NCBI RefSeq assembly: GCF_053078305.1
Contig: NZ_CP166879.1
DNA: 64,000 bases
Strand: one strand, 5' to 3'
This document shows, one piece after another, positions 25,185 through 56,362 of this stretch (the stretch's first letter is position 1; each line of letters starts with the position of its first letter). The notes beneath the pieces were generated by a model. That model worked only from the letters and a program-made list of their open reading frames with translations, was not told the DNA's origin and did no database searches. Position numbers and translations under genes: made by a program.

Positions 25185-25251
25185 TATATATTCCCCTTGT
25201 TTACTGTGCTCCCGCACTCTCCGGTCAAATTCTGCACATCATCGCCTTTAC

Positions 25252-26739: not shown

Positions 26740-28216
26740 TCTCCTGAACCCGACCTGATGTGTCGTACCCGGTCCCCCGCAGACCTTCAGTTTTCTGCTG
26801 TTCTTCTGCCAGTTGGTGCATCAGGTCATTCAGTACCAGCGTCCTGAGGGCCCGGGTGACAGCCACATATAACAGACAGGTTTCATCATGACGCTCGGCC
26901 TCCGTCATCAGCGGAACCGTGATATCCTGGAAATCCTCATCCAGCATTACAACCGGCCACTCCAGCCCCTTGCTCCGGTGTGCCGTTGACACCGTGATAT
27001 CTGCATCCTGCTCATTCGTTACCGTATACTGCCGGAGAAGTTCCAGTTTTTTCGGTAACGGAAAACACAACTCCAGAAGCCGAAGGGACTGATTCATCTC
27101 CACATCCTTCGTGGATTTTGCAATATATTTATATTCTTCAAAATTCCTGTAGTCCCGGCGCAGCCTGTCTGAATGCATCCGTTCCGGCATATCAACCTGG
27201 AACCAGTAGAGATCCTCAAGTTCCCCGGTCCTGTAACCTTCGATTCCCCCCACCCAGTAAACCTTTTGCCCTTTCATTGCCGCCATCAGCGCAGTACCAA
27301 TCACACCCGCGACAGTACGACTGAGTACCGTGTAATGCCCCTGCAGATGTTCACGCGCATGGCATTTCAGCAATACCTCATCATCACCACCACAACCTTT
27401 CACCTCTCGTGTTTCACCTTCACGCTGCAGAAGCAGATTTGCCATACGAGCCACCGCCGGACCAAAACGGAAACTCTGTGTCAGCCACAACCGGTCCGCA
27501 TTCTTCAGTGCAGGATGGGAAAGCGCATTATTCGCACCCCGAAAGCGGTAAATCTGTTGATAACAATCTCCAACAAGGACCACCCGACACTTCTGCCCCA
27601 GAACCAGAGCAGTGGTCACCGGATTCGCATCCTGCGCCTCATCAAACAGGATGGTGTCCCATCGGTGAGACAGGTCTGCACCGGACAACTGGAAGAGTTT
27701 CAGATAAGTATCGTGCGTCACCGGGAACGTCCCCCCGGGGTTGCTCATTTCGTTCCAGAGCAACTGCACCGCCCGAAGCGCATCTGCTGGCGGAACACCC
27801 CGCATCTCATCCTTATCCGGCAGGTGATGCAGGCCCGGTACCGCATCAGCAGAACAGATAAAATGATTCAGCCCCGTCCCTGCCACCCGTGCCAGAGCCC
27901 AGTATCGTGTATTCAGCTTTCTCGCCACATCAGTAATACGTAATCCCGGAACCAGCCGATGACGGTAGTGTCTTCCAACCCGGGCATACGCCAGCTGATG
28001 TGACGTTCTGCATTCCACGTTAAAGGGAAATTTACGCTCTGCCTCATCACGTATTGCCCGGTTATAGGCAAGATAGAGCATACGGCTGTCCGGACTGGCC
28101 CGGGCAAACTGCACCAGCGTACTCGTCTTCCCTGTGCCGGAAAACGCATTCACAACCAGTTGCTGCCCCTGCCAGTTAATAATGGCGTACTGTTCATCTG
28201 TGGGATTAAAAGACAT
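26726..28216 (-). CDS. UvrD/Rep-like superfamily 1 DNA helicase
   Basis: Start MSFNPTDEQYAIINWQ (ATG 28216); Walker A GTGKTS, motif II FDEAQD, C-terminal VAVTRA-type motif. Confidence 0.8.
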   Translation of the reverse strand: MSFNPTDEQYAIINWQGQQLVVNAFSGTGKTSTLVQFARASPDSRMLYLAYNRAIRDEAERKFPFNVECRTSHQLAYARVGRHYRHRLVPGLRITDVARKLNTRYWALARVAGTGLNHFICSADAVPGLHHLPDKDEMRGVPPADALRAVQLLWNEMSNPGGTFPVTHDTYLKLFQLSGADLSHRWDTILFDEAQDANPVTTALVLGQKCRVVLVGDCYQQIYRFRGANNALSHPALKNADRLWLTQSFRFGPAVARMANLLLQREGETREVKGCGGDDEVLLKCHAREHLQGHYTVLSRTVAGVIGTALMAAMKGQKVYWVGGIEGYRTGELEDLYWFQVDMPERMHSDRLRRDYRNFEEYKYIAKSTKDVEMNQSLRLLELCFPLPKKLELLRQYTVTNEQDADITVSTAHRSKGLEWPVVMLDEDFQDITVPLMTEAERHDETCLLYVAVTRALRTLVLNDLMHQLAEEQQKTEGLRGTGYDTSGRVQENGHA

Positions 28217-28447
28217 GTATTCTCTTCTCCGGAAAAACATTTCCGTAATCTGATGCATCAGGGGTATGCCCACCACAAATAACTCTGTACAGCAACAGAA
28301 AAATTTCCCTGGTCATATGATGAATTAATCATCGCCATCACACCGGATGCTTCTCATCCTGTCCTCAGAAAGACAGGTGGTCTCCTGTCTGCCGCGCTTA
28401 TCCAGGATACCGGGACCTGAAAGGTCATAATCTGGCAGGAAAAAATA

Positions 28448-30124
28448 ATGTCCGAAGTAAAAAAACACGTTTCTTATTCATTAACAGTTGCAGCTATGCT
28501 GTCAGCCGCCATCGTCTGTCAGACAGCACATGCTGATATCAACACACCGAACATCACCGGAGAAAAAAACAATACAACAACACGATTCTCCGGAAATATT
28601 TACGGCAGTGAAAATACTGTCACATCAGAGTCAAACAGTCTGGTTGTGGGTAACAGTAATTCCGTGGAGGGAGGGTATAACAACATTGTTATTGGTAATT
28701 CCTCCACGGTCAAAGCTTCCGGTTTGATCAGAAAAGTGGGCGAAGATATTGTGCTGGATGGTTACAGCGTCAGCCTCGGTAATGCCACCAGAATTAACGG
28801 TGATTCATCTGTTGCCATAGGTCTGACATCGTCCGTAACCGGGAACGACTCCGTGGCACTGGGCAGTCATTCCAGTGCTAACGGAAACAATATCGTATCC
28901 GTCGGCTCTGACACACTGAAACGCCGCATCACAAATCTGGCACAGGGGAAAGATGACCATGATGCGGTAAATCTGATGCAGATGACCAGTGCTGTTAACC
29001 GGGAAGCTGGAGAAAGAATAAAATCAACAAACAACCTGCAGAATCAGCTTAATACCCTCTCTGGTCAGGTCATAACTGAAACCAGGGCCCGAACAGAAGG
29101 TGATGCAGCAGCGCTGGCTGCAGCCAGAGCCCACAGCGATGAAAACGACAAAAGAACACTGGTCAGTGCGAATACCTATGCTGACCAGAAAGAAACCGCC
29201 ATCAATAACCGTACTGACGGATTACTGACGACCGAACGCCAGGCACGCACCGCAGGCGATACTGCAACTCTGGCTGCTGCCAGAACGCACAGCGATGAAA
29301 ACAACAAAAGAACACTGATCAGTGCGAATACCTATGCTGACCAGAAAGAAACCGCCATCAATAACCGTACTGACGGATTACTGGCTACAGAACGCCAGGC
29401 ACGCACCGCAGGCGATACTGCAACTCTGGCTGCTGCCAGAACGCACAGCGATGAAAACAACAAAAGAACACTGGTCAGTGCGAATACTTATGCTGACCAG
29501 AAAGAAACCGACATCAATAACCGTACTGACGGATTACTGGCTACAGAACGCCAGGCACGCACCGCAGGCGATACTGCAACTCTGGCTGCTGCCAGAACGC
29601 ACAGCGATGAAAACAACAAAAGAACACTGATCAGTGCGAATACCTATGCTGACCAGAAAGAAACCGCCATCAATAACCGTACTGACGGATTACTGACGAC
29701 CGAACGCCAGGCACGCATCGCAGGTGATGCCGCAACTCTGGCAACAGCAGCGGCATACAGTGACGCCGGGGATTCACTGACACTGAAACAGGCAACAGCC
29801 TACAGCGATATCAGTACCCGCCGGGCACTGTCAGAGGCCAATCGTTATACCGACAACAAATTCAGAAACCTGAGCAATAAAATTGAACGGGCAGAAAAAA
29901 GACTTAATGCAGGCATCGCCGGAGTGACAGCAATATCCTCCATCCCCTATGTGGCTGAAAATTCTTTTTCATACGGGATCGGCGTGGGTAACTATCAGAA
30001 CGCTAATGCTGTGGCCGCAGGCATTCAGTATAAAACATCACGTAATACCAATATACGCCTCAACATCTCCTGGGACTCATCTCATAACACCGCGATTGGT
30101 GCAGGGGTTGCCGGCGGCTGGTAA
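28448..30124 (+). CDS. Trimeric autotransporter adhesin (YadA-like; Eib/Saa-like size class)
   Basis: Signal peptide (AAMLSAAIVCQTAHA); head repeats (NSVEGGYNNIVIGNSS, SVAIGLTSSVTGNDSVALG); coiled-coil stalk with tandem repeats; C-terminal YadA anchor ending NISWDSSHNTAIGAGVAGGW. Confidence 0.8.
   Translation: MSEVKKHVSYSLTVAAMLSAAIVCQTAHADINTPNITGEKNNTTTRFSGNIYGSENTVTSESNSLVVGNSNSVEGGYNNIVIGNSSTVKASGLIRKVGEDIVLDGYSVSLGNATRINGDSSVAIGLTSSVTGNDSVALGSHSSANGNNIVSVGSDTLKRRITNLAQGKDDHDAVNLMQMTSAVNREAGERIKSTNNLQNQLNTLSGQVITETRARTEGDAAALAAARAHSDENDKRTLVSANTYADQKETAINNRTDGLLTTERQARTAGDTATLAAARTHSDENNKRTLISANTYADQKETAINNRTDGLLATERQARTAGDTATLAAARTHSDENNKRTLVSANTYADQKETDINNRTDGLLATERQARTAGDTATLAAARTHSDENNKRTLISANTYADQKETAINNRTDGLLTTERQARIAGDAATLATAAAYSDAGDSLTLKQATAYSDISTRRALSEANRYTDNKFRNLSNKIERAEKRLNAGIAGVTAISSIPYVAENSFSYGIGVGNYQNANAVAAGIQYKTSRNTNIRLNISWDSSHNTAIGAGVAGGW
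29132..29755 (+). repeat. Four tandem copies of a 156-bp (52-codon) in-frame repeat inside the adhesin stalk
   Basis: Unit starts at 29132, 29288, 29444 and 29600 (CACAGCGATGAAAAC...), near-identical; encodes HSDENNKRTL(V/I)SANTYADQKETAINNRTDGLL(T/A)TERQARTAGDTATLAAART. Confidence 0.9.
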
Positions 30125-34893: not shown

Positions 34894-35118
34894 ATGACAC
34901 GCAACGCAACGCAACGCAACGCAACGCAACGCAACGCAACGCAACGCAACGCAACGCAACGCAACGCAACGCAACGCAACGCAACGCAACGCAACGCAAC
35001 GCAACAATATGCTCGCCTGAACTCTCTCCGTCAAGTACCTCTACCTCCGTGCTTTCTGGAGGTACTGTATGAATATACGCAACAATCATCTACCGGGAAC
35101 AGAAACTCTTTTTTCTGA
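34894..35118 (+). CDS. Candidate leader ORF containing the pentanucleotide tract and overlapping the mod start
   Basis: ATG 34894 preceded by GAGG (34885-34888); reads MT(RNATQ)x7 through the repeat and ends at 35118, 50 nt beyond the mod ATG; coding status unproven. Confidence 0.35.
   Translation: MTRNATQRNATQRNATQRNATQRNATQRNATQRNATQQYARLNSLRQVPLPPCFLEVLYEYTQQSSTGNRNSFF
34899..35005 (+). repeat. Perfect pentanucleotide simple-sequence repeat (GCAAC)21
   Basis: 21 uninterrupted GCAAC units at 34901-35005 (tract with partial unit starts 34899), ending 63 bp upstream of the mod ATG. Confidence 0.97.
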
Positions 35119-37105
35119 AACTGAAACTGCGAACAGTAAACAACTTGCTGTTTTGAAAACTAACTTTCCACAGTGTTTCGATAAAAACGGAGCTTTCATT
35201 CAGGAAAAGCTGCTTGAGATCATCAGAGCATCAAATGTTGAAATCTCTAAAGAGTCATACTGCTTAAACTGGCTTGGCAAATCCTATGCTCGCCTGCTGG
35301 CTAACCTACCACCAACGACATTGCTGTCAGAAGATAAAGACCATAACCGACGTGAAGAGAACAAGAACAGTCAAAATCTGTTAATCAAAGGGGATAACCT
35401 TGAGGTATTAAAGCATATGGTTAATGCTTATTCTGAAAAGGTTAAAATGATTTATATCGATCCGCCATATAACACGGGTTCTGATGGGTTCGCCTATAAT
35501 GATGATCGCAAATTTACACCAGAACAGCTTTCTGATCTGGCGGGTATCGATCTTGATGAGGCTAAACGTATACTTGAATTTACCACGAATGGTTCAAGCA
35601 GCCATAGCGCATGGTTAACGTTCATTTATCCTCGTTTATATATTGCTCGTGAGCTTCTACGTGAAGATGGTGTGATATTTATTTCGATTGACGAAAATGA
35701 ATTAAATCAACTTAAAACTATTTGTGATGAAATTTTTGGCGAAGCAAATTTCATAGAAAATATTGTATGGAATAAACGTATCCCTAAAAATGATAAGGGT
35801 ATTGGTAATATCCATGAGTACATCCTTGCTTATGCGAAGAATAACGAAATAAGTAAAGAATTTTTAATGCGGAAAGATGGTATTGATGATGTATATCAGT
35901 TTATTGAAAAGTTAAAAAAGGAAAAGGTGCCATTAGATAAAGCAGAGCAGCAACTCAAAAAATTCTACAGCTCCAACGGATATGATCGTGGAATTACTCT
36001 TTACAACGGTTTGAACGAGGATTATAGGCCATGGGGTAAAATTAATATGAGTTGGCCTAATGCAGATTCATTTGGACCCACGTATGAAGTATTGCACCCT
36101 TTGACTAATAACCCTGTCAAAATCCCAGACAGAGGCTGGCGTTGGAAAGAAGGCACTTTTAATCATATTGCAAAAAGAATAGATGGAAAGTATGCAGATA
36201 TCAAAAAACTACATGATGGTAGCGTTATTTGTGGTGGAATTTGGTTTGCCCGTACAGAAAAAACCCAACCCAGTTCGGTTAAATTTTTAGATGAAGTTGA
36301 AGAGTTTTTACTAAGATCAATTATTTCAACTAAAAGTGATGGTGGTGTTGAGGTTGAAAATCTTTTTGGTGGGAAAGGATATTTCTCCTACCCGAAGCCA
36401 ACAAGTTTAATAAAAACACTATTTGGTTCAGTAAGAACCGAAGATAAAGACATTTATCTTGACTTTTTTGCTGGCTCTGGAACTACAGCTCATGGTATTC
36501 TGGAGTTAAATATTGAAGACGGCAGGAAAAGAAACTTCATCTGTGTTCAATTAGATGAAGAAACAGATAAAAAGAAACAAGCCTATAAAGAAGGGTATAA
36601 ATCCATCTTCAATATAACAAAAGACAGAATTATTAAGGCAGGAAAAAAGCTGAAAAAAGATAATCCTAATTATAATGGAGATTTGGGATTTAAAATATTT
36701 GAAACAGTTCATGATTTTCGAGCGAAAGATGAGTCTGAACTTACGCTTTCTAATCTTAGTTTCTTTGACGATGCTGTATTGACACCAGAGCAGTATGACA
36801 CTCTATTGACGACATGGTGCGTGTATGATGGCAGCTTGCTAACAACACCAATTGAAGATATTGACCTTAATGGCTACAAAGCACACTTGTGCGATGGTCG
36901 GCTATATCTAATTGCGCCTAATTTCACAAGTGAGGCTTTGAAAGCTTTACTTCAAAAGCTGGATGCAGACAAAGACTTTGCCCCTAACAAAGTTGTATTT
37001 TATGGCAGCAACTTCGAAAGTGCGAAACAGATGGAACTCAATGAAGCACTAAAAAGTTATGCTAATAAAAAATCTATTGATTTAGATTTGGTGGTAAGGA
37101 ACTAA
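35069..37105 (+). CDS. mod: Type III restriction-modification methyltransferase Mod (N6-adenine)
   Basis: 678 aa; GGAGG Shine-Dalgarno at 35058-35062; motif IV IYIDPPYNTG, motif I FFAGSGTTAHG; followed 2 bp later by res. Confidence 0.9.
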   Translation: MNIRNNHLPGTETLFSETETANSKQLAVLKTNFPQCFDKNGAFIQEKLLEIIRASNVEISKESYCLNWLGKSYARLLANLPPTTLLSEDKDHNRREENKNSQNLLIKGDNLEVLKHMVNAYSEKVKMIYIDPPYNTGSDGFAYNDDRKFTPEQLSDLAGIDLDEAKRILEFTTNGSSSHSAWLTFIYPRLYIARELLREDGVIFISIDENELNQLKTICDEIFGEANFIENIVWNKRIPKNDKGIGNIHEYILAYAKNNEISKEFLMRKDGIDDVYQFIEKLKKEKVPLDKAEQQLKKFYSSNGYDRGITLYNGLNEDYRPWGKINMSWPNADSFGPTYEVLHPLTNNPVKIPDRGWRWKEGTFNHIAKRIDGKYADIKKLHDGSVICGGIWFARTEKTQPSSVKFLDEVEEFLLRSIISTKSDGGVEVENLFGGKGYFSYPKPTSLIKTLFGSVRTEDKDIYLDFFAGSGTTAHGILELNIEDGRKRNFICVQLDEETDKKKQAYKEGYKSIFNITKDRIIKAGKKLKKDNPNYNGDLGFKIFETVHDFRAKDESELTLSNLSFFDDAVLTPEQYDTLLTTWCVYDGSLLTTPIEDIDLNGYKAHLCDGRLYLIAPNFTSEALKALLQKLDADKDFAPNKVVFYGSNFESAKQMELNEALKSYANKKSIDLDLVVRN

Positions 37106-37107
37106 TC

Positions 37108-40020
37108 ATGTCTAAAGGGTTCACATTCGAAAAAAATTTACCTCATCAAAAGGCTGGCGTTGATTCGGTAATGAATGTCTTTGTATCCGCCATACCTCAT
37201 CAGACGGATCATGTTGCAATTCGCCTGTTAGCTAATCCAGAACTGAATCTATCTGAACAACAATACTACAACAACATAAAAAATGTTCAGGAGTTCAATG
37301 GTATTGAGCACTCAAAAGATAATTACGATGCTAAAAGCAACGTAATTGATGTTTCTATGGAGACAGGTACAGGTAAAACTTATACTTACACCAAAACAAT
37401 TTTTGACCTGAACAAATCATTTGGTATTAACAAATTTATCATCATTGTTCCTACCCTATCGATCAAAGCCGGAACCGTTAACTTTTTAAAAAGCGATGCT
37501 ATAAAAGAACACTTTCGAGATGATTACGAGCGTGAACTAAAGACTTACGTTGTTGAAAGTCAGAAAAGTTCGGGTAAAAATACAAAATCGTATATGCCTC
37601 AAGCTATCCATGATTTTGTTGAAGCAAGTAATTTCAATAAGAAATATATACACATTCTTGTGATCAACTCAGGGATGATTAACTCTAAGTCTTTAACTGA
37701 CACTTATGATGTTGGCTTGCTTGATAATCAGTTTGATACCCCATTTTCTGCACTTAGTGCGATAAAACCATTCATTATCATTGATGAGCCTCATAAATTT
37801 CCTACTGGTAAAAAGACATGGGAACATATTCAAAAATTTAATGCCCAATATATCATCCGCTATGGCGCAACCTTTAGTGAAGGCTATAAGAACTTAGTTT
37901 ATCGTCTTACAGCCGTAGATGCCTTCAATGAAGATCTTGTTAAAGGTATTGATGCATACATTGAGGATATAGTTGGTGATGGTAATGCCAACCTCAAGTT
38001 GGTCAAATCTGACGGAAAAGAAGCTACATTTGAACTGAACGAAAATAATAATAAAAAAATTTTTAAGTTAGCCAAAGGTGAATCACTATCTAAGACGCAT
38101 AGTGCGATCCATGATTTAACTCTTGATGCTTTAAATAAGAATACAGCAGTGTTGAGTAATGGTATTGAGCTAAAAATTGGTAGTTCGATAAACCCCTATT
38201 CTTACGATCAGACACTTGCTGATAACATGATGCGTAAAGCTGTCAAAGAACACTTTAAGTTAGAAAAAGAGTATCTGACACAAAGGCCACGCATAAAACC
38301 TCTTACTCTTTTCTTCATTGATGACATTGAAGGCTATCGTGATGGTAATGATATTGCAGGAAGCCTGAAAACTAAGTTCGAAGAATACGTTTTGGCAGAA
38401 GCAAATGAACTGTTAAAAACAGAGAAAGATGAGTTTTACAGAAACTACCTTGAAAAAACTGTTAAGGATATATCTTCTGTTCATGGTGGTTATTTTTCAA
38501 AAGATAATAGTGATAAAGATGATAAAATTGAGCAGGAAATCAACGAAATCCTTCATGATAAAGAGCTTCTATTGTCTTTAGAAAATCCTCGCCGTTTCAT
38601 TTTCTCTAAATGGACGTTGCGTGAGGGATGGGATAACCCAAATGTCTTTCAGATTTGTAAGCTCCGTTCGAGCGGTAGCACCACATCTAAACTTCAGGAG
38701 GTAGGGCGTGGTTTACGTCTTCCAGTGAATGAATACATGTGCCGTGTGAAAAACCGCGATTTTACTCTCAACTATTATGTTGATTTTACGGAAAAAGATT
38801 TTGTTGATTCTCTTGTAAAAGAGGTTAATGATAGTTCTTTCAAAGAAACTGTTCCAGGTAAGTTTACTCAAGAACTTAAGGATAAAATCTTATCTCAGTA
38901 TCCTGAGCTTTCATCCAGAACACTCATGAATGAGATCTTTGATGCTGAAATTATTGATGATAATGAAAACTTCAAAGATTCCGATGCCTATAGCCGTTTA
39001 AAAGCAAAATATCCGGCTGCATTCCCTACCGGGGTGAAACCAACAAAAATAAAAAAAGCCACGGATGGAAAAAAGCGTACTAAAATGCGTATTGGTAAGT
39101 TCAGTGAGTTGAAAGAACTATGGGATTTGATCAATCAAAAAGTAGTAATTGAGTATAAAATAAATAGTGAAAATGAATTCTTATCCATTTTCAAATCATT
39201 CATGATTGAAGAAACAGATAGATTTACTAAATCAGGTGTTCATACTCGCATTGATAGAATTTATATTCATAATGATACGGCGATGTCGAAAAGTATCGTC
39301 AGTGACGATGATAACTTTGCTAAACTAAACACAATGAGCTATCGGGAATTTCTTGATAACTTATCACAAACTATTTTTGCTAAACACGATACCTTACATA
39401 AGGTTTTTTGTGATATAAAAGACACTATCAATATCACCGACTACCTGAACATTCAGACAATCAGAAAGATTAAATCTGGGTTTAGCAAGTATTTGTTGAA
39501 CAATTCATTTAACAAATTCAGCCTTGGATATAATGTAATTTCAGGCTCAATTCATCCTACAAAATTCACTAATGCAGACGGTAATCACCTGCATGAGGTA
39601 TTATCAGGTGATCTTGGAGTATTACAGGATAATACAAAAGCCCCCCTAGACTCTTATCTTTTTGAAGAAGTTTTTTATGATTCAGAGCTTGAAAGACTCA
39701 ATATAACAGACGGAGAGATCCACTCTGTTGCTGTTTTTACAAAGATACCGAAAAACTCAATTAAAATTCCAGTGGCAGGTGGATACACATATTCTCCTGA
39801 CTTTGCTTATGTTGTAAAAACAACAAAGGGTGACTACCTTAACTTTATTATTGAAACAAAAAATGTCGAAGGTAAAGAAAGTTTACGTAAAGAAGAACTG
39901 GATAAAATAAAGCATGCACAAAAACTTTTCGAACAGGTAAGTAAATCTGTAAAAGTAACTTTTATAACTCAATTCTCAGGTGACAGAATCCATGATCTGA
40001 TAAAAAATGTGATTCAGTAA
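37108..40020 (+). CDS. res: Type III restriction enzyme Res subunit (SF2 helicase-like ATPase/nuclease)
   Basis: 970 aa; Walker A TGTGKTYT, DEAH-like IIIDEPHKF; tightly coupled to mod. Confidence 0.9.
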   Translation: MSKGFTFEKNLPHQKAGVDSVMNVFVSAIPHQTDHVAIRLLANPELNLSEQQYYNNIKNVQEFNGIEHSKDNYDAKSNVIDVSMETGTGKTYTYTKTIFDLNKSFGINKFIIIVPTLSIKAGTVNFLKSDAIKEHFRDDYERELKTYVVESQKSSGKNTKSYMPQAIHDFVEASNFNKKYIHILVINSGMINSKSLTDTYDVGLLDNQFDTPFSALSAIKPFIIIDEPHKFPTGKKTWEHIQKFNAQYIIRYGATFSEGYKNLVYRLTAVDAFNEDLVKGIDAYIEDIVGDGNANLKLVKSDGKEATFELNENNNKKIFKLAKGESLSKTHSAIHDLTLDALNKNTAVLSNGIELKIGSSINPYSYDQTLADNMMRKAVKEHFKLEKEYLTQRPRIKPLTLFFIDDIEGYRDGNDIAGSLKTKFEEYVLAEANELLKTEKDEFYRNYLEKTVKDISSVHGGYFSKDNSDKDDKIEQEINEILHDKELLLSLENPRRFIFSKWTLREGWDNPNVFQICKLRSSGSTTSKLQEVGRGLRLPVNEYMCRVKNRDFTLNYYVDFTEKDFVDSLVKEVNDSSFKETVPGKFTQELKDKILSQYPELSSRTLMNEIFDAEIIDDNENFKDSDAYSRLKAKYPAAFPTGVKPTKIKKATDGKKRTKMRIGKFSELKELWDLINQKVVIEYKINSENEFLSIFKSFMIEETDRFTKSGVHTRIDRIYIHNDTAMSKSIVSDDDNFAKLNTMSYREFLDNLSQTIFAKHDTLHKVFCDIKDTINITDYLNIQTIRKIKSGFSKYLLNNSFNKFSLGYNVISGSIHPTKFTNADGNHLHEVLSGDLGVLQDNTKAPLDSYLFEEVFYDSELERLNITDGEIHSVAVFTKIPKNSIKIPVAGGYTYSPDFAYVVKTTKGDYLNFIIETKNVEGKESLRKEELDKIKHAQKLFEQVSKSVKVTFITQFSGDRIHDLIKNVIQ

Positions 40021-40103
40021 ACACATGCATGATAACAAAGTGGAGGTGGTTTCACCCCCACTTTATAATTATACACACATCACAAAATTCGCAGGTGAGT
40101 TCA

Positions 40104-40802
40104 ATGACAACATGTTCTGAACTGAAGGAAAGAGCCCGTTTTGATGGTATGCATGATGCTTCTCTTGAAGTGGCATGGCAATTACTTATGACGAAAAGTG
40201 TATCCACTATTACTACTGAGATAATATCCGGTGCAGACATGTCCAATTTTTCAGTGATTATCAGGGAACGATATAAACATGCAATAGCAAAATCTCTTCT
40301 CAATCATTTATCTCCCGATGTTGTTTCTGACATCATCGGTTTATCTCATGATGAGTTCAATCAACAATATAAAGGCAATTTAACCAGACAACAACACCTG
40401 AGAGATATTGCTGTAAGTTTAACAGATAAAGGATTCACAGAATCATCTGCATGTAATATTGTCAACCTGGACCTAATGTTACTTCCTGAAGAAAACTGGT
40501 TACTTTATAAAGAAAATTACAATACAGGATATCAGGATGCACTTTATAAATCCGTATGGAGAATGCACACATACGAATATCCAACAGCAACCATCAGTTG
40601 TTTGACAAAATTAAATAATGAAAATATATTAAATATTATTACAGGTATAGAAGTAATACTCCTCGCAGCAAAAAAACCTGCATGTAAAGACAGAACAGAT
40701 AAAATTGCTGAAATGCTGAAAATACCATTCTCTGTCGTCAAAGAATTTATTGATGAACAGGCTTTATTGAACAAATCAAACATTCAGGGAACTGGCAGTT
40801 GA
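40104..40802 (+). CDS. Hypothetical protein immediately downstream of res
   Basis: ORF 40029..40802; preferred start ATG 40104 (MTTCSELKERARF) with AGGTGA Shine-Dalgarno; AT-rich like mod/res. Confidence 0.45.
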   Translation: MTTCSELKERARFDGMHDASLEVAWQLLMTKSVSTITTEIISGADMSNFSVIIRERYKHAIAKSLLNHLSPDVVSDIIGLSHDEFNQQYKGNLTRQQHLRDIAVSLTDKGFTESSACNIVNLDLMLLPEENWLLYKENYNTGYQDALYKSVWRMHTYEYPTATISCLTKLNNENILNIITGIEVILLAAKKPACKDRTDKIAEMLKIPFSVVKEFIDEQALLNKSNIQGTGS

Positions 40803-40848
40803 ACAAAACGCCAGTCCGAAGACTGGCGCAGTGATAAAACATTCTGCA

Positions 40849-41535
40849 TCATGCCACATTCTGCTCCTGAAGATGACGCAGACGATGGTCCCAGTTTCCC
40901 AGGTAATGCCCGGGCGTCAGCAGTACGCGGCGTCGCTCATTACAGAGCGAGTTACCAATCACCACTTCTCCGGCCACACCACACAACGACAGTTGTATAT
41001 ACGCCATGCCGGCTGCCAGCGGGTCAATATCCGTTGCCGACACCCACATCCTGCGATATGCCGGATACCCCGAACGGTTCAGGGTGTCAGCCATTGCCAG
41101 AATCATACTGCCGGCACCACAGGCAGGTTCACTGAGCGTGATAAAGGGTTTGTTCTCAAACAACGCCTTCACATCTCCCATCTGCATCTGTGCCATCATG
41201 CTGGCAACACTCCAGGGCGTGAAAAACTGACTCCGGTATTTATCCCCCAGTTCCAGTTGCATGAACACACTCCCCAGAAAATCACAGACTCCCTGCTCCA
41301 GTCCCTCAATGACATGAGCAAGCAAATGCGCAATGTGGATAACATCCTGCTTTTCATAACCACTGACGATCCGCAGATACTTCTGTTCCCGGGCCTCACT
41401 GAACTGAAGCCGGTTTTCCAAGGCAATCACACTACAGCTGACAAAGTCTTCAAACACCTTATGACGTTTGTGATAACAGGCTGTCCGGTTAAACAACGAA
41501 ATGAACTCCTTCTGATGGTCAGTCATGGTGGCCAT
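40849..41535 (-). CDS. N6-adenine DNA methyltransferase-like protein (HsdM-like fold, short, apparent degenerate motif IV)
   Basis: 228 aa; QFFTPWSV and SEPACGAGSM resemble the FxTP and AdoMet-binding motifs of HsdM-like methyltransferases; no canonical NPPF/DPPY seen. Confidence 0.55.
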   Translation of the reverse strand: MATMTDHQKEFISLFNRTACYHKRHKVFEDFVSCSVIALENRLQFSEAREQKYLRIVSGYEKQDVIHIAHLLAHVIEGLEQGVCDFLGSVFMQLELGDKYRSQFFTPWSVASMMAQMQMGDVKALFENKPFITLSEPACGAGSMILAMADTLNRSGYPAYRRMWVSATDIDPLAAGMAYIQLSLCGVAGEVVIGNSLCNERRRVLLTPGHYLGNWDHRLRHLQEQNVA

Positions 41536-41646
41536 GTTTTCTCCGTAAAAACAGGGAACACATGGCCCGGACAGGGGAACAGGTGTTCCCCTTCGGGTTG
41601 AAATGTTGATAAAACGGGCATCACGGACATGATACCCGGAGGTTAA

Positions 41647-42594
41647 TTACTGGGCTGAGACCAGAGGAACCGGTAAAGGTGCGGCTTTCGTCTGTTCTTC
41701 AGCGCACTCCTCCACCAGGTACAGTCGGGGCTGTGGAAGTGTTTCCCTGCCCGGCCATTCGGCCTGCAGATCACTGTCCGTATGCTCTCCGCCATCGTAA
41801 CAGTTGTAACCCTGTATACCGTGTACCGGCTCGCTGTACCAGTGTCGGACCTCGCAGTCAAACACCTTCGAGATCTCACCAACCAGTTCGCCTGAAGGCG
41901 GATACCAGGGCGTGTCGATCAGCAGCACCAGACTGCTCATCTCATCACGCGCATGGCGAACATTATTTCCTGACGGCCACTCCACACCGTATATCCGGCT
42001 GTAAAGGCTGGTCGTTGTGGAAATACCCTGCAGCAGTCCACCTGAACCATTCAGCTCTGTAGCCAGACGGGAGGGTATGACCATCAGCATGTCACAGGGC
42101 TGCGCCTGTTCCGGGTAATCCGACAACCAGCTCCAGCAGGCTTCTGCATCAATGTGTTCACTCAGCCCGGCCAGACCAAACCAGTCAGAATACTGACGGC
42201 TCATCAGCGTGGTGATGATCTCCCTGGCATTATCCGGCAGATTACCCCAGCGAACAGCGCCGATACATGACTGGTGATAAAGACGCTCAATGGTCTTTAT
42301 CGTTTCACCATCCAGAACGGCATTTTTTACCAGCAACCCCAGCCACTGCTCAAACGCCTGGTTAGCCGGAGATGACAACCCCGTTCCGTGACGAACCAGC
42401 GCCGGATATGGCGGATACTGCGTCGTCCGTGTGGGTTTTACCAGCCCTGCACAACCGGCCAGAAACAGCTGTATACTCTGCTGTATGGCATGACGGTAGC
42501 GCGGGGTCTCACGCCCTTCAATCCACTGTGTAAGTACATCAAGACAGACTGATTTACCGGTAATTTCAAAACGGTTTTTGCACCATTCAGACAT
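41647..42594 (-). CDS. Hypothetical protein (315 aa)
   Basis: ORF only; first in a same-strand run of genes. Confidence 0.5.
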   Translation of the reverse strand: MSEWCKNRFEITGKSVCLDVLTQWIEGRETPRYRHAIQQSIQLFLAGCAGLVKPTRTTQYPPYPALVRHGTGLSSPANQAFEQWLGLLVKNAVLDGETIKTIERLYHQSCIGAVRWGNLPDNAREIITTLMSRQYSDWFGLAGLSEHIDAEACWSWLSDYPEQAQPCDMLMVIPSRLATELNGSGGLLQGISTTTSLYSRIYGVEWPSGNNVRHARDEMSSLVLLIDTPWYPPSGELVGEISKVFDCEVRHWYSEPVHGIQGYNCYDGGEHTDSDLQAEWPGRETLPQPRLYLVEECAEEQTKAAPLPVPLVSAQ

Positions 42595-42677: not shown

Positions 42678-42992
42678 TCACGCCCCGTTGTTGCGGATAA
42701 AACCCTGCAGCCAGGCAGTTCGCTCAGGGCCATACCGCCTGTTGACATTCATCAGTTCGTCTGCAGACGGATTGATGAAAAGGTTGTAGTACCAGAGCTC
42801 TTCCTTTAAATCCGCCAGGTTCCCCCTGCCGGTCCTGAGCCACTCCTGTACAACATCCCTGATTTCAGATGTGACATCTCCACGGTAATTTGACGTGATC
42901 GTAACATCTGCCAGTAATTCACTGATATTTCCTGCTATCAGACACGGTTCAGAGATCCCGTTACAGAACCAGACAAGGCATTTACCAGCCAT
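42678..42992 (-). CDS. Hypothetical protein (104 aa)
   Basis: ORF only; 3-bp gap to the upstream ORF. Confidence 0.4.
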   Translation of the reverse strand: MAGKCLVWFCNGISEPCLIAGNISELLADVTITSNYRGDVTSEIRDVVQEWLRTGRGNLADLKEELWYYNLFINPSADELMNVNRRYGPERTAWLQGFIRNNGA

Positions 42993-42995
42993 ACC

Positions 42996-43433
42996 TTACC
43001 TCCTGTATTTGCTGGTATTTATCCCGATCTCGTTTATGGCTACGGATATGTTGCCCGGAAAACGCGCTGTTTCAATCTTCTCCAGCTCGTTTTTCCGGTA
43101 ACGCTCCACGGTCACACTCAACGGGACGTTCCCCTGTCCGTACTCTTTACGAAGGCGATCAATACACTCCTGTACCAGTTCATCGCTGAAATAACGGGAT
43201 TCAAGCACAGACAGCAGCCCGTCTTTATTCTCAAACCCCTCTGTGACAGAGCGTACTTCGGCCTCCGTTGGACCATCCAGCCAGCTCACCCACACATTGT
43301 TGAAAACTTTCGGGAAAGATGGATCGCATTTCCGCACAGAAAATTTCTGTCCCGGAAATGTATACGCCAGCACATCCCTGATACGGGCCACAACAGCATC
43401 GTCAACATCAACCAGTGCGTTATCGTTCATCAC
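42996..43433 (-). CDS. Hypothetical protein (145 aa)
   Basis: ORF only; same strand, tightly spaced. Confidence 0.45.
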   Translation of the reverse strand: MMNDNALVDVDDAVVARIRDVLAYTFPGQKFSVRKCDPSFPKVFNNVWVSWLDGPTEAEVRSVTEGFENKDGLLSVLESRYFSDELVQECIDRLRKEYGQGNVPLSVTVERYRKNELEKIETARFPGNISVAINEIGINTSKYRR

Positions 43434-43539: not shown

Positions 43540-44517
43540 TTATGCTGCGCACTCCTGCGAAGTTCGCCGCGTCAGTAAATACTCTGATGCTTCACGTGCC
43601 TGCCGGCAGGCGCGAAACAGCGCTTTTTTGTCAGACTTCAGAACCTTAAGCCATCCGTCAATATAACTTTCGTGCTGTACGTCACCGGCAATCCCGAGAT
43701 GTGCACACAGAAAAGCACTGCCCATCTCGGCAATCAGCTCTTCAAACGCATATTCCGGGCTTTTGCGACCGGTAAAGGTACTTATCCCCACCCGCCGCAG
43801 GCGCTTTTCATGACCGGTACTGTGTACCAGCTCATGCAGCAGGGTGGCCTGGTAATCAGCCACCTGGTCAAACTGCGACGACAGTGGCATCACGATACGG
43901 TCAAGATCAGGCCGGTAGAATGCCCTGTCCTGTGGAAGTGACGAGACGCTGACGCCGCTGCCATTCAGTACCTGCAGCACCCGCTCACTGAAGGTATCTG
44001 CCGGCAGTGCATCCGCGCTGCCTTCCGCCTTCACCATCAGATGTTCAGGTAAACCGTCACACTGCCCCACATTAAACAGAGGATTCGATTTCAGTACCGG
44101 TACGATTTCCATGAGAGGCTCCCCCTCACTGTCCGTCAGCCGGTTACCGTGTTCATCCACAGCCTGTTTTTTCCAGTCTTTGTAAATCACCGCCAGCGTG
44201 GCCACCTCCCCTTTACGGACGTGGCCACCCAGTTGTTGCGCCTGACGGTACGTCAGCCAGTCATTGCTGACATACCCGGCTTCATCCGCGGCCAGCCACA
44301 GCAACAGGACGTTCACCCCTGTATAAGGCTTCCCGGTCAGGGCATTTGCCGGCATCATCTCCGGAAGCCCCACGCCATTACGCGCAGAGCGCCAGGGACG
44401 TTTCCAGGGTGGCACACCATTTTCAATGGCCGTAACAACCCTGTCGGTCACAAGCTGATACAGGTCACGTTCCGGAGTTTTAATCGCGGTACGTGAAGTA
44501 TGTTTTTTCGTTTTCAT
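43540..44517 (-). CDS. ArdC-like anti-restriction protein (N-terminal ssDNA-binding domain plus zincin metalloprotease domain)
   Basis: Start MKTKKHTSRTAIKTPE (ATG 44517); HExxH zinc-protease motif in LLHELVHSTGH; architecture typical of conjugative-element ArdC. Confidence 0.7.
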   Translation of the reverse strand: MKTKKHTSRTAIKTPERDLYQLVTDRVVTAIENGVPPWKRPWRSARNGVGLPEMMPANALTGKPYTGVNVLLLWLAADEAGYVSNDWLTYRQAQQLGGHVRKGEVATLAVIYKDWKKQAVDEHGNRLTDSEGEPLMEIVPVLKSNPLFNVGQCDGLPEHLMVKAEGSADALPADTFSERVLQVLNGSGVSVSSLPQDRAFYRPDLDRIVMPLSSQFDQVADYQATLLHELVHSTGHEKRLRRVGISTFTGRKSPEYAFEELIAEMGSAFLCAHLGIAGDVQHESYIDGWLKVLKSDKKALFRACRQAREASEYLLTRRTSQECAA

Positions 44518-44609
44518 AAGAGCATGCCCCCTGAAAAAGATGCACGCTCCCTGTACGGTGAGAGTGCACCGTACAGTTAAATTAATAACGAAAATCAGAC
44601 TGGCCAGAA

Positions 44610-45029
44610 TTACCACAACGCCAGCATCACCAGTGAACGACGCTCAAAATCAAACGTCTTCAGCGTATTGCTGACCCACGCTTTTACGTCATCCACGTCA
44701 TACCAGTAATCACCGGCATAATCTTCCCCCCGTAAACACGAGCCTGTGACATAAGGAAACAGCCTGTGGCAGTTCCCCGGTGTCAGCATACTGAGGTCGC
44801 GCAATAATGCAGCCAGTGAACTGCGGGTTACAGGGAAAGCATGCTGCTCATCTGAAGCACCGGTATGTTCACGAAACCATGTCAGAAGAGGTTTCACCTT
44901 ACGGAAAGCCCCCACCTCCTGATGTTCCTGTGTTCCCACAACGGCACCACTGTGATGGTTATCACGAGCCAGAAAGTAAATATCGAGTCCCATAACAATT
45001 CTCCTGAATAAAGCCGGGACTCTCCCCAC
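44610..45029 (-). CDS. Hypothetical protein (139 aa; may start at the internal MGLDIYF)
   Basis: ORF only. Confidence 0.35.
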   Translation of the reverse strand: MGRVPALFRRIVMGLDIYFLARDNHHSGAVVGTQEHQEVGAFRKVKPLLTWFREHTGASDEQHAFPVTRSSLAALLRDLSMLTPGNCHRLFPYVTGSCLRGEDYAGDYWYDVDDVKAWVSNTLKTFDFERRSLVMLALW

Positions 45030-52643: not shown

Positions 52644-53601
52644 GTCTTCATCCTCATCAGCAGCTCTTCAGTGGATAACATCCACAGTTACACCTGCATT
52701 TACGCGCAACAAAAACACCAGATGAAGATTTTATTCATTCAGCTCCGCTAAAAATTAATCTTGCTGTGGAATATCGGGAAAACAGGAAGTTACGTTAAAA
52801 GCCGAAGGAAAAACTCACAATCCCTTCTTCAATCAGCCTCTGAAAATCGGCTTTTCAGCATGTCTTCCCCCATTGTTCGTATACCCTGTTCGATGGATTA
52901 TTATTGATCCATATGATCGCTTCACGTAAACACGATTCTGGCTCCACACCATTCTGGACGCGATTGTTACCAAAAAAGACAACCATCACAAGACGTCACA
53001 GACGGTGCGTGCGCTTACTCCTGTATATCTGGCGCAACAGAATCTACCAGTGTAAACTCTCTATGCTTTTGCGCAGAAGCAGTGGGCCTGGGTTCGCTTA
53101 TGTCCTGCATCTACAAGCGAATGACTGACCAGAGACTCCCATATCTGGTCAGTCGCCCATTTTTATTTTCCCTATACACTCAGACTACAATAGCCGTAAC
53201 AAACAGCATACCCCCAGTCATAGTGGCCCCTTTATCTTCTTATGGCTTGTCTGTGGTACTGGAGATAGAGCAACTGTGGGAGTACTGTTATGGCCCCCGG
53301 TAAGAAAAACTCTTGCTTAATGTACAGCAGAACTGTTCCCAGAAAGAAGCCTGTGCATATTTTCATAGAAGGAGATCACCCATAACGGCGTTTTTCACGG
53401 TAATACACGCCAGGTAAAGAATGCTGGATTATCAATCAAAGCTCCGCACAGGAAGCGCTTATGCCGTAGAGCGCCCTCTGGAGAAAAGTGCTACTTCTTG
53501 TCGATTCAGACTAGTTCAGGAAATTATACGAAAATATTACCTGAATGAGCTAAATGTTATTTACCTTCCTTTCTGTTCATTGTAAATTTTTTCTTGCTAA
53601 C

Positions 53602-53620
53602 GCAAATCATTATCATTACG
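53602..53620. promoter_or_regulatory. Candidate Fur box upstream of the TonB-dependent receptor gene
   Basis: GCAAATCATTATCATTACG: three NAT(A/T)AT-like hexamers (AATCAT TATCAT TACGAT) matching the Fur consensus GATAATGATAATCATTATC core, 21 bp upstream of the start. Confidence 0.5.
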
Positions 53621-53640
53621 ATTTTAGAAAAGGGAAATTT

Positions 53641-55689
53641 ATGAAGAACAAATATATCATTGCTCCGGGCATTGCCGTGATATGTTCTGCAGTCATATCA
53701 TCAGGTTATGCCAGTTCTGATAAAAAAGAAGATACGCTTGTTGTTACTGCCTCCGGCTTCACTCAGCAACTCAGAAATGCACCGGCCAGTGTTTCAGTCA
53801 TTACTTCAGAGCAACTGCAAAAAAAACCGGTTTCAGACCTGGTCGATGCGGTAAAAGATGTTGAAGGGATTAGTATCACCGGTGGGAATGAAAAACCGGA
53901 TATCAGTATACGTGGGTTAAGTGGCGATTATACATTGATTCTGGTCGATGGACGACGTCAGAGTGGTCGGGAATCCAGACCAAACGGCAGCGGCGGTTTT
54001 GAAGCCGGATTTATCCCTCCTGTGGAAGCAATTGAGCGTATTGAAGTTATACGTGGCCCTATGTCTTCCCTGTATGGTTCCGATGCTATCGGAGGAGTTA
54101 TTAATATCATAACCAAACCTGTTAATAACCAGACATGGGATGGCGTACTTGGGCTTGGGGGAATTATTCAGGAACATGGGAAATTTGGTAACTCAACCAC
54201 GAATGACTTCTACCTGTCAGGCCCATTGGTTAAGGATAAACTTGGTCTTCAGTTATATGGAGGAATGAACTATCGCAAGGAAGATAGTATCTCTCAGGGA
54301 ACACCAGCAAAAGATAATAAGAATATAACGGCAACACTCCAGTTTACTCCGACTGAAAGCCAGAAGTTTGTTTTTGAATACGGAAAAAATAACCAGGAAC
54401 ATACATTAACACCTGGTGATTCTCTTGATGCCTGGACTATGCGGGGAAATCTTAAACAACCAAACAGTAAAAGAGAAACACATAACTCACGTAGTCACTG
54501 GGTAGCAGCATGGAATGCCCAGGGCGAAATACTGCATCCTGAAATTGCTGTTTATCAGGAGAAAGTTATTCGTGAGGTTAAATCTGGTAAAAAAGATAAA
54601 TATAATCATTGGGATCTTAATTACGAGTCAAGAAAACCGGAAATAACCAACACGATCATAGATGCAAAAGTGACGGCATTTCTGCCGGAAAATGTGCTGA
54701 CCATCGGAGGTCAATTTCAGCATGCAGAACTCCGTGATGACTCAGCCACAGGTAAAAAAACGACAGAAACACAGTCTGTTTCAGTTAAACAGAAAGCTGT
54801 TTTTATAGAAAATGAATATGCTGCAACGGATTCTCTCGCCCTGACTGGAGGGCTGCGCCTCGATAACCATGAAATCTATGGCAGTTACTGGAATCCAAGA
54901 TTGTATGCTGTTTATAACCTGACCGATAATCTCACTCTCAAAGGAGGGATCGCAAAAGCATTTCGGGCCCCTTCGATTCGTGAGGTCAGTCCTGGATTTG
55001 GAACACTGACGCAGGGTGGTGCCTCTATTATGTATGGAAACAGGGACCTGAAACCGGAGACCAGTGTAACCGAAGAGATCGGTATTATTTATAATAATGA
55101 CAGTGGTTTTTCAGCAAGCGCGACTCTGTTTAATACAGATTTTAAAAATAAGCTGACCAGTTACGATATAGGCACAAAAGATCCAGTCACTGGGCTAAAC
55201 ACTTTTATTTATGATAATGTGGGTGAGGCAAATATCAGAGGTGTGGAGCTTGCAACTCAGATTCCTGTGTATGATAAATGGCGTGTATCTGCAAACTATA
55301 CATTCACTGACTCCCGTCGAGAAAGCGATGACGAAAGTCTCAATGGCAAGTCGCTGAAAGGGGAACCTCTGGAAAGAACTCCCAGACATGCAGCCAATGC
55401 AAAACTGGAATGGGATTACACTCAGGATATTACATTTTATTCATCTCTGAATTATACAGGAAAACAAATCTGGGCAGCACAAAGAAATGGTGCCAAGGTT
55501 CCCCGTGTTCGTAATGGATTCACTTCTATGGATATTGGTATGAATTACCAGTTCCTGCCAGGCACGCTGATTAATTTTGCCGTACTTAACGTCACAGACA
55601 GAAAGAGCGAAGATATCGATACCATTGATGGTAACTGGCAGGTCGATGAAGGACGTCGTTACTGGGCTAATGTAAGAATATCCTTCTGA
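53641..55689 (+). CDS. TonB-dependent outer-membrane siderophore receptor (IrgA/Iha/CirA-like)
   Basis: Start MKNKYIIAPGIAVICSA (ATG 53641, AAGGGAAA upstream); TonB box DTLVVTAS; plug motifs IRGPMSSLYGSDAIGGVINIIT; C-terminal aromatic residue (RYWANVRISF). Confidence 0.9.
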   Translation: MKNKYIIAPGIAVICSAVISSGYASSDKKEDTLVVTASGFTQQLRNAPASVSVITSEQLQKKPVSDLVDAVKDVEGISITGGNEKPDISIRGLSGDYTLILVDGRRQSGRESRPNGSGGFEAGFIPPVEAIERIEVIRGPMSSLYGSDAIGGVINIITKPVNNQTWDGVLGLGGIIQEHGKFGNSTTNDFYLSGPLVKDKLGLQLYGGMNYRKEDSISQGTPAKDNKNITATLQFTPTESQKFVFEYGKNNQEHTLTPGDSLDAWTMRGNLKQPNSKRETHNSRSHWVAAWNAQGEILHPEIAVYQEKVIREVKSGKKDKYNHWDLNYESRKPEITNTIIDAKVTAFLPENVLTIGGQFQHAELRDDSATGKKTTETQSVSVKQKAVFIENEYAATDSLALTGGLRLDNHEIYGSYWNPRLYAVYNLTDNLTLKGGIAKAFRAPSIREVSPGFGTLTQGGASIMYGNRDLKPETSVTEEIGIIYNNDSGFSASATLFNTDFKNKLTSYDIGTKDPVTGLNTFIYDNVGEANIRGVELATQIPVYDKWRVSANYTFTDSRRESDDESLNGKSLKGEPLERTPRHAANAKLEWDYTQDITFYSSLNYTGKQIWAAQRNGAKVPRVRNGFTSMDIGMNYQFLPGTLINFAVLNVTDRKSEDIDTIDGNWQVDEGRRYWANVRISF

Positions 55690-55725: not shown

Positions 55726-56362
55726 ACCAGTATAGTAATCAGTAACGTCAGCTTCCAGGTTGTAATGCTTTTAATTTTGATAAAAATAAACTTAATAAAT
55801 TACATTTGTTAAATATTGATAATTTTAATTTGGTTTTATTACTCCAGTTATACTCACACTCTATCTTTACACAATTCATCACCATTACACCTCCATAGCC
55901 TGTTGATTTAAAAGATTTAATTTCCTGTGAAACAATCAGGCCTGTATGAACCTGATTATACCACAGAATCTTTTAAGTTATTTAAATTTAACTCTCGGGC
56001 TTTTCTGTCAGTAAAATCAGAAAAATTGCAGGATTTCGTTTTTTTTGCTGCGAAGTGAAATGTATCTCATTTTTACTGCCTTCGCCAGTGCGTCAGGCAA
56101 TGGCAGGTAGTGTACCTGCATTCTGCTGTAACGCGTAATGTCGGGTAGTTTACTTAAACTTAATATGTTTTATGTTTGCATTATTATAAATCACTTTATT
56201 GCCTTTTGTCTGCTTTTTAATGGTTCCCGTTTTGTTCACTTCTGGCTTTATAAAAAATGGATGCTGAAGAAATGAAGGTAGTCCACCTTACATAATATTC
56301 ATGCATGATTTTTATGCTATTCCGACTGAGTGGAAGAAAATAAAGGAGAAAAGAGGGTATAT

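Follow-up and report, generated by a model that had tools for sequence, protein, structure and literature searches.

A gene labeled 'N-6 DNA methylase' in an integrative conjugative element encodes a predicted half methyltransferase with conserved AdoMet-binding motifs

The 64,000-nucleotide stretch of contig NZ_CP166879.1 (NCBI RefSeq assembly GCF_053078305.1) analyzed here, referred to as the window, carries on its minus strand a gene (40849..41535) for a 228-amino acid (aa) protein, WP_044192245.1, which the sources label 'N-6 DNA methylase'. The gene appears in the list of open reading frames (orfs) of the window, its product has a Pfam N6_Mtase match and an AlphaFold2 model, and the exact 228-aa sequence is present in public collections. 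As judged from alignments, the protein keeps all of the motifs that bind S-adenosylmethionine (AdoMet)—X, I, II and III—and these are near-invariant throughout the family; the modeled fold is an HsdM-like helical N-domain followed by the first four Rossmann strands, a 'half methyltransferase'. Conservation in the family is highest in the parts that hold AdoMet, and nothing remains of those that bind the flipped base and the DNA. We tentatively favor the explanation that the protein binds AdoMet without methylating and assists the ArdC-type toolkit for establishment and anti-restriction, possibly as a mimic or adaptor of the methylation (M) subunit of restriction complexes.

Sequence motifs and conservation

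The only Pfam match of the protein is a weak one to N6_Mtase (PF02384; E-value 5.9e-5, 23 bits), which covers residues 100–200 and positions 24–118 of the 311 in the profile. Coverage was confined to these same positions in every family member tested, as against positions 2–310 for EcoKI HsdM, and an earlier prediction made from the sequence alone (the original prediction) was correct in describing the protein as shorter than typical enzymes. In NCBIfam and PADLOC all matches were below threshold and limited to the first motifs of methylases of types I and II; a search of solved structures with the single sequence returned nothing relevant, and profiles were needed. All conservation figures given here derive from an alignment of 140 representatives of 50%-identity clusters; a 32-sequence alignment was also made.

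The protein begins with an N-terminal four-helix domain (residues 1–81; 41293..41535, minus strand, as for all parts of the gene), in which the polar residues D30, E50, Y53 and Y60 are invariant in the family. A helix with the sequence D85-x-L-G88 and motif X (G/S-Q-F-F-T-P, residues 102–107) follow at 41215..41283, and correspond to the parts of gamma-class enzymes that contact the methionine side of AdoMet. D85 is conserved in 99% and G88 in 100% of the sequences, Q103, F105, T106 and P107 in 97–99%, with F or Y at position 104, and the motif aligns with QYFTP or EFFTP of HsdM proteins. Strand beta1 and motif I (L-S-E-P-A-C-G-A-G-S-M; 41104..41136) make up the glycine-rich AdoMet loop, where E/D136, P137, G140 and G142 are 96–100% conserved and align with DPAAG(T/S)G of EcoKI and EcoR124 HsdM. 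The order of the two motifs, X (QFFTP, 103–107) before I (EPACGAG, 136–142), is that of the gamma-class N6-adenine enzymes, and both signatures that the original prediction had named in this 228-aa protein, QFFTP and SEPACGAGSM (135–144), are thus present. Strand beta2 (163–169; 41023..41043) ends in motif II, the acidic D169, at the position that contacts the ribose hydroxyls in class I methyltransferases; D169 is 99% conserved, as is Q181.

Motif III (V-V-I-G-N-S-L, residues 191–197) lies with strand beta3 at 40945..40965 and was located by alignment to EcoR124 HsdM. G194 is 96% conserved, position 195 is N in 115 and D in 23 of the 140 sequences, T or S comes next, and L197 is 93% conserved. 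The original prediction had put forward VVIGNSLCNE as the nearest candidate for the catalytic motif IV; this segment is actually motif III, the equivalent of GNTL in EcoKI and EcoR124 HsdM. The family profile places G-N-[ST]-L on GNTL 282–285 of EcoR124 HsdM in the solved-structure library, and in the EcoKI HsdM sequence, AIRLGNTLGSDGENLPKAHIVATNPPFG, GNTL (247–250) stands 16 residues before NPPF (266–269). Against EcoKI HsdM, hhalign and hmmsearch aligned motifs X and I only, owing to a long EcoKI insertion there, and automatic local alignment of the C-terminal parts fell into the wrong register. The assignment of motif III is therefore based on the EcoR124 alignment, on GNTL and NPPF as read in the EcoKI sequence, and on the order in which the strands follow one another in the model.

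The topological place of motif IV is occupied by T-P-G-H-Y (207–211), directly after strand beta4 (200–206; together 40903..40938), as located by the AlphaFold2 strand and the alignment. No intact catalytic motif is seen at this place, T207-P208-G-H210-Y: the (N/D)-P-P-(Y/F) that follows beta4 in gamma-class enzymes is replaced by TPGHY. T207 is 98% and P208 90% conserved, the next residue is variable, and position 210 is H in 79, Y in 37, F in 10 and W in 6 of the 140 sequences; among distant members the place loosens to S/T-L-x-(H/Y) or M-P-F-L. The claim that an NPPF or DPPY tetrapeptide is absent extends to the family, since [NDS]-P-P-[YFWH] was found neither in the studied protein nor in the module of about 280 homologues. 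It is absent from 131 of 131 close homologues and from the module of all 149 representatives at 50% identity, where the three matches that occur sit either at an unaligned position or within additional domains.

Predicted fold

The AlphaFold2 model, built from the 32-sequence alignment, has a mean predicted local distance difference test score (pLDDT) of 93.2 and a predicted template modeling score (pTM) of 0.91. Four N-terminal helices (7–81) are followed in order by the D-x-L-G helix, the motif X loop, beta1 (132–136), a helix, beta2 (163–169), a helix, beta3 (188–195), beta4 (200–206), and helices 208–212 and 215–227. These last two helices (40852..40914), which include the 86% conserved W215, stand in the place of motifs V–VIII and of strands beta5–beta7, and four of the seven strands of the class I fold are present. 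The chain ends 21 residues after TPGHY; the target-recognition part is absent, with no residues past 228. HsdM and other gamma-class enzymes (PF02384; EcoKI, EcoR124, PacII M, BseCI and lmo1582) are about 500 aa in length, whereas the studied protein stops after beta4 and has neither the C-terminal helices that bind HsdS nor a target-recognition domain; nor is it encoded with hsdS or hsdR.

An identity as a DNA-mimic anti-restriction protein of the ArdA or Ocr type is ruled out by charge, the isoelectric point being 6.5 for the studied protein and 5.3–9.4 in the family, as against about 4 with an acidic surface for a DNA mimic; the fold, moreover, is a methyltransferase fold.

The same features bear on whether the protein could be an active, unorthodox minimal methyltransferase, in which T-P-x-(H/Y) and the N-domain residues form the active site, maybe upon oligomerization or together with another protein, and which promiscuously methylates incoming single-stranded or double-stranded DNA, or some other substrate, in the manner of orphan methylases of plasmid leading regions. 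The intact AdoMet motifs and the strongly conserved T, P and aromatic or histidine residue at the place of motif IV count in favor of such an enzyme. We nevertheless consider it unlikely, given the four strands out of seven, the missing motifs V–VIII and DNA-binding and target-recognition part, the lack of any N/D/S-P-P-aromatic sequence in the homologous modules, and the drift of the motif in distant members, which is unusual for a catalytic motif. To our knowledge, every class I methyltransferase known to be active has a larger core.

Leading-region orphan methylases do protect entering DNA (PMC7736820, PMC11541004), which lends this alternative some weight, but the characterized ones belong elsewhere: M.EcoGIX and M.BceJIII both fall in the beta class and carry DPPY (PMC7736820). 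These, together with the methylase of the F plasmid, resemble the studied protein in their early-entering niche, in size (227 aa for the F plasmid methylase) and in the label that databases give them. They differ in being beta-class N6_N4_Mtase proteins with DPPY and a complete fold; the studied protein is unrelated, belongs to a different Pfam family and has no similarity to the F plasmid methylase, and an identity with the F plasmid or M.EcoGIX leading-region methylase was rejected on these grounds.

Integrity of the gene

The studied gene is real, complete and under selection. A GGAG ribosome-binding site lies 7 nucleotides (nt) 5' of its ATG, and a terminator-like hairpin (40808..40829, minus strand), G+C-rich and followed by a T-run, was found 20 nt past the stop codon by a terminator scan and by direct reading. 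Comparison with the orthologue of Salmonella SGI-4 gives values of 0.14 for non-synonymous (pN) and 0.73 for synonymous (pS) divergence, the synonymous sites being near saturation, and indicates strong purifying selection.

These data also refute the possibility that the gene is a pseudogene, the truncated remnant of a full-length hsdM-type gene cut by an inserted low-GC type III restriction-modification cassette. That possibility arises from the position of the gene at the border between a block of 34–40% GC and one of 46–53% GC, and from a Pfam match limited to the first third of the domain. The 99%-identity block common to other E. coli islands, however, starts at about position 40719, so that the shared backbone continues for about 130 bp past the stop codon and the gene is not cut by the cassette. 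Truncation is likewise ruled out by the gene's own terminator and by the constant length of the family, which is the same in thousands of clusters across phyla; the purifying selection and the confidently predicted compact fold also speak against a remnant.

A perfect palindrome, GGGGAACA-GG-TGTTCCCC, occupies positions 41574–41591, between the terminator of the upstream DUF1281 gene and the start of the studied gene. Only one copy of this palindrome exists within the window, which speaks against a repeated operator; it could be a single-copy operator.

Family size and distribution

An exhaustive search of 1.84 billion cluster representatives assembled the family into 3845 clusters at 50% identity with an E-value threshold of 1e-3, and 2261 with a threshold of 1e-10; a second search using the alignment recovered the same close relatives. 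Nearly all members of the top 150 clusters are stand-alone proteins of 220–300 aa, and the homologues in Enterobacterales are 220–235 aa throughout. Using tblastn, the family was found in 2199 of 72,556 plasmid records, of which 1511 are conjugative, with hosts that include Klebsiella, Enterobacter, Acinetobacter, Pseudomonas and even Enterococcus. Integrative conjugative elements (ICEs), SGI-4 among them, carry it too, as do 12 phage records, and a PHROG of unknown function matches the studied protein with an E-value of 1.4e-68. All sources sampled label these proteins 'N-6 DNA methylase' or 'SAM-dependent DNA methyltransferase', and a literature search found no paper characterizing a member of the family.

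The ArdC gene cluster and fusion proteins

The studied gene is the last of a cluster of genes on one strand, ArdC–LPD29–orf104–DUF1281. The ArdC-family protein (43540..44616, minus strand) has an ArdC-N domain, which binds single-stranded DNA, and a zincin metallopeptidase domain (Pfam ArdcN, E-value 2.1e-36; MPTase-PolyVal, 2.9e-38) with an intact HELVH at residue 261. Fusions of ArdC-N to the module seen in the studied protein, found in other proteins, link this module to ArdC. Three independent representatives of about 651 aa (P0144, P0158 and P0160) consist of ArdC-N, a metallopeptidase-like region, a CbtA-like stretch and the C-terminal module. The ArdC protein of the window matches their N-terminal 260 residues with an E-value of 1e-29, and the studied protein matches their last 220 residues with 42% identity and an E-value of 1e-57; by these matches, the proteins are Rosetta-stone fusions of two genes in the cluster of the window. 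The module is also found at residues 497–701 of a 4104-aa polyvalent protein, and fusion to ArdC-N or polyvalent proteins was observed in P0144, P0158, P0160 and P0275.

In all three of the ~651-aa proteins the metallopeptidase HExxH is missing, and the stretch between the two parts resembles the CbtA toxin. The ArdC orf of the window is listed with a GTG start and a length of 358 aa, compared with about 325 aa for RefSeq entries in other genomes, and the true start is probably an internal ATG (MKTKKH...). In E. coli SCU-171 the ardC orthologue is a pseudogene and the studied gene is intact.

A different kind of fusion is seen in P0199 (645 aa; locus L013, 8001–9938, on a phage-like contig), in which the module is N-terminal and a complete small methylase, with FFPTP...EPSAGRG...NPPF, is C-terminal, so that a half domain and a whole enzyme share one chain. 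Coupling of the module with an intact NPPF methylase could mean cooperation in methylation, and is a further point on the side of an active, if unorthodox, enzyme.

The fusions to ArdC bear on another alternative, in which the protein is a SAM (AdoMet) sponge or a SAM-consuming enzyme—a hydrolase or lyase—that lowers AdoMet for the type I, type III and bacteriophage exclusion (BREX) defenses. The strongest selection falls exactly on the AdoMet-binding motifs and the family occurs in phages and in early-entering plasmid regions, as this explanation would have it, and an analogy exists in phage T3 SAMase, which defeats type I restriction and BREX through removal of SAM (bioRxiv 10.1101/2023.02.27.530186). 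The ArdC fusion is left unexplained, the protein has no similarity to known SAM lyases, and nothing in the data points to hydrolytic chemistry. AdoMet is, besides, abundant in cells, and its stoichiometric sequestration is therefore implausible. We regard this alternative as improbable.

The other genes of the cluster, all on the minus strand, are those of the immediate upstream neighbor, a 315-aa protein with DUF1281 and DUF1281_C domains (41647..42594; Pfam E-value 1.8e-75), a 104-aa orf (42678–42992), a 145-aa LPD29-domain protein (42996–43433; Pfam LPD29, E-value 1.3e-10), and a small 139-aa orf (44610–45029). The 104- and 139-aa orfs match only PHROGs of unknown function (phrog_10958 and phrog_7971 for the two), and the whole ArdC cluster is therefore shared with phages.

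Gene neighborhoods in other elements

Other E. coli islands and ICEs, and Salmonella SGI-4 as well, show the order ArdC–(LPD29)–DUF1281–module with variable cargo directly after the module; in SGI-4 this cargo is the sil operon. In other E. coli chromosomes the same block adjoins ICE conjugation genes. An integrase, a TraI_2 (MOBH-type) relaxase and a UvrD-like helicase are encoded at 24147–28276 (minus strand), which places the window inside an ICE; a second integrase is also within the window.

The family member of a Klebsiella IncFII plasmid belongs to the leading region, where psiB/psiA/hok flank it on one side and an antirestriction gene on the other, next to an SLT gene and the origin of transfer (oriT) and traM; its orientation is that of ssb and psiB. 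The member in a Serratia plasmid is downstream of sopAB and about 5 kb from ardA, and those in Acinetobacter and Shinella plasmids and in a Faecalibacterium phage are beside ParA/ParB or large ParB-like genes. In none of the loci inspected (E. coli, SGI-4, plasmid and phage loci) does hsdS or hsdR adjoin the gene. The gene context points to entry and establishment.

The partition genes raise the alternative that the family serves the maintenance or regulation of the plasmid or ICE—partition, replication control or gene silencing—and that its location with ArdC reflects shared early expression. The ParA/ParB, SopAB and ParB-like neighbors in the Acinetobacter, Serratia and Shinella plasmids and the Faecalibacterium phage are the observations in its favor. 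ParB-like genes are, however, themselves typical of leading regions, the fusions found are to ArdC and to a polyvalent protein and none is to a partition protein, and the family is also found in early regions of lytic-type phages. A maintenance role thus seems rather unlikely, and both it and the SAM sponge or lyase are weaker than the unorthodox-enzyme alternative.

The neighborhoods resemble those of the ArdC and polyvalent-protein toolkit (PMC5512222, PMC7213743): the cluster is shared with ArdC and LPD29, the module is fused to ArdC-N and occurs in a polyvalent protein, and the distribution—conjugative plasmids, ICEs and some phages—is the same. The methylase described for polyvalent proteins is a full DarB-type LPD36–methylase–helicase unit, unlike the truncated module (PMC5512222), and a term search of that survey found no description of the truncated module.

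Other features of the window

A complete type III restriction-modification system, with a Mod protein of 678 aa and a Res protein of 970 aa, is encoded on the plus strand at 35069–40020. It forms a block of 34–40% GC that directly abuts the ICE backbone, and it shares no more than about 85% identity with type III res genes in complete E. coli genomes. A 257-aa orf (40029–40802, plus strand) starts 9 nt past res and may be the third gene of this cassette; searches of Pfam, NCBIfam, PHROGs and PADLOC gave no match, and its DNA was not found in 5426 complete E. coli genomes. The cargo also includes two YadA-type trimeric autotransporter adhesins of 558 aa (28448–30124) and 1454 aa (56330–60694), both on the plus strand, and the siderophore receptor gene ireA (53554–55689).

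Discussion

We predict that the studied protein most likely binds AdoMet or S-adenosylhomocysteine, and that by itself it most likely does not methylate DNA. A role in anti-restriction is proposed, and mimicry of the M subunit toward type I-like complexes is the most economical idea, albeit a speculative one. Under this explanation, conjugative elements and some phages would express the toolkit, the studied protein included, upon entry into a new cell; the protein, with or alongside ArdC, would mimic or adapt the M subunit of AdoMet-dependent restriction complexes of the type I HsdRMS kind, and this mimicry would interfere with restriction of the incoming DNA. A bolder version, to which we assign a low likelihood, is that the family constitutes a widespread and unrecognized class of anti-restriction proteins, in which an AdoMet-loaded M mimic, alone or tethered to ArdC, would dock on type I-like complexes of the recipient (HsdRMS, and possibly those of the BREX PglX type) and keep them from restricting the entering DNA.

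Several observations weigh against an AdoMet-binding accessory that does not methylate. The place of motif IV has not decayed, since T-P-x-aromatic/His is highly conserved there, and N4-cytosine methylases function with Ser-Pro-Pro-Tyr/Phe as their motif IV, so that some catalysis is possible; the invariant D30, E50, Y53 and Y60 of the N-domain could be the active site of some other chemistry. HsdM binds HsdS through its C-terminal helices, and simple replacement of the subunit is therefore not obvious for a module that lacks them. The association with ArdC is not universal, since several plasmids have ParA/ParB, SopAB or unrelated small genes alongside. A tandem-dimer AlphaFold2 model gave an intermediate pTM of 0.65, which neither favors nor excludes self-association.

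The original prediction had suggested that the protein may be an inactive, methyltransferase-like one, such as a SAM binder or decoy, rather than an orphan methylase, and this interpretation is plausible. It is strengthened by the absence of both the catalytic tetrapeptide and the C-terminal half, by the near-invariant AdoMet motifs and by the link to ArdC; the motif IV candidate that it named was misassigned, and the conserved residues at the true position leave room for residual or different chemistry.

Dnmt3L and METTL14 are catalytically dead methyltransferase paralogues that act as partners of other proteins. The studied family resembles them in being derived from a methyltransferase, in apparently lacking a working catalytic motif, and in being kept by selection, plausibly through protein–protein contacts. 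The resemblance ends with the fold: in Dnmt3L and METTL14 cofactor binding has been lost and most of the fold kept, whereas in the studied family the cofactor site has been kept and half of the fold lost. Among pseudoenzymes, a methyltransferase remnant that has four strands and binds the cofactor would be unusual.

The ArdC fusion offers a concrete starting point for tests of the means by which ArdC-type systems defeat type I restriction. In the recipient, R388 needs its ArdC protein to counteract type I HsdRMS, and the protease activity of ArdC is dispensable for this (PMC7213743). Leading regions are enriched in anti-defense genes, and surveys of them list families under names such as "N-6 DNA methylase / type I ... 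methyltransferase subunit" (in the supplement of PMC11541004) and group the methylase genes found there as orphan methylases (PMC11541004). The studied protein is probably a methyltransferase-derived module of the anti-restriction toolkit, one that is very common and uniformly labeled a methylase in the sources sampled. If it is indeed an M mimic, the 'N-6 DNA methylase' genes on clinical plasmids (Klebsiella IncFII, Acinetobacter, Pseudomonas), on ICEs such as SGI-4 and in phages would not be methylases. If these proteins do not methylate DNA, interpretations of methylomes and of restriction barriers that rest on the label would be wrong, and a common early-entry function of resistance plasmids would still have to be explained.

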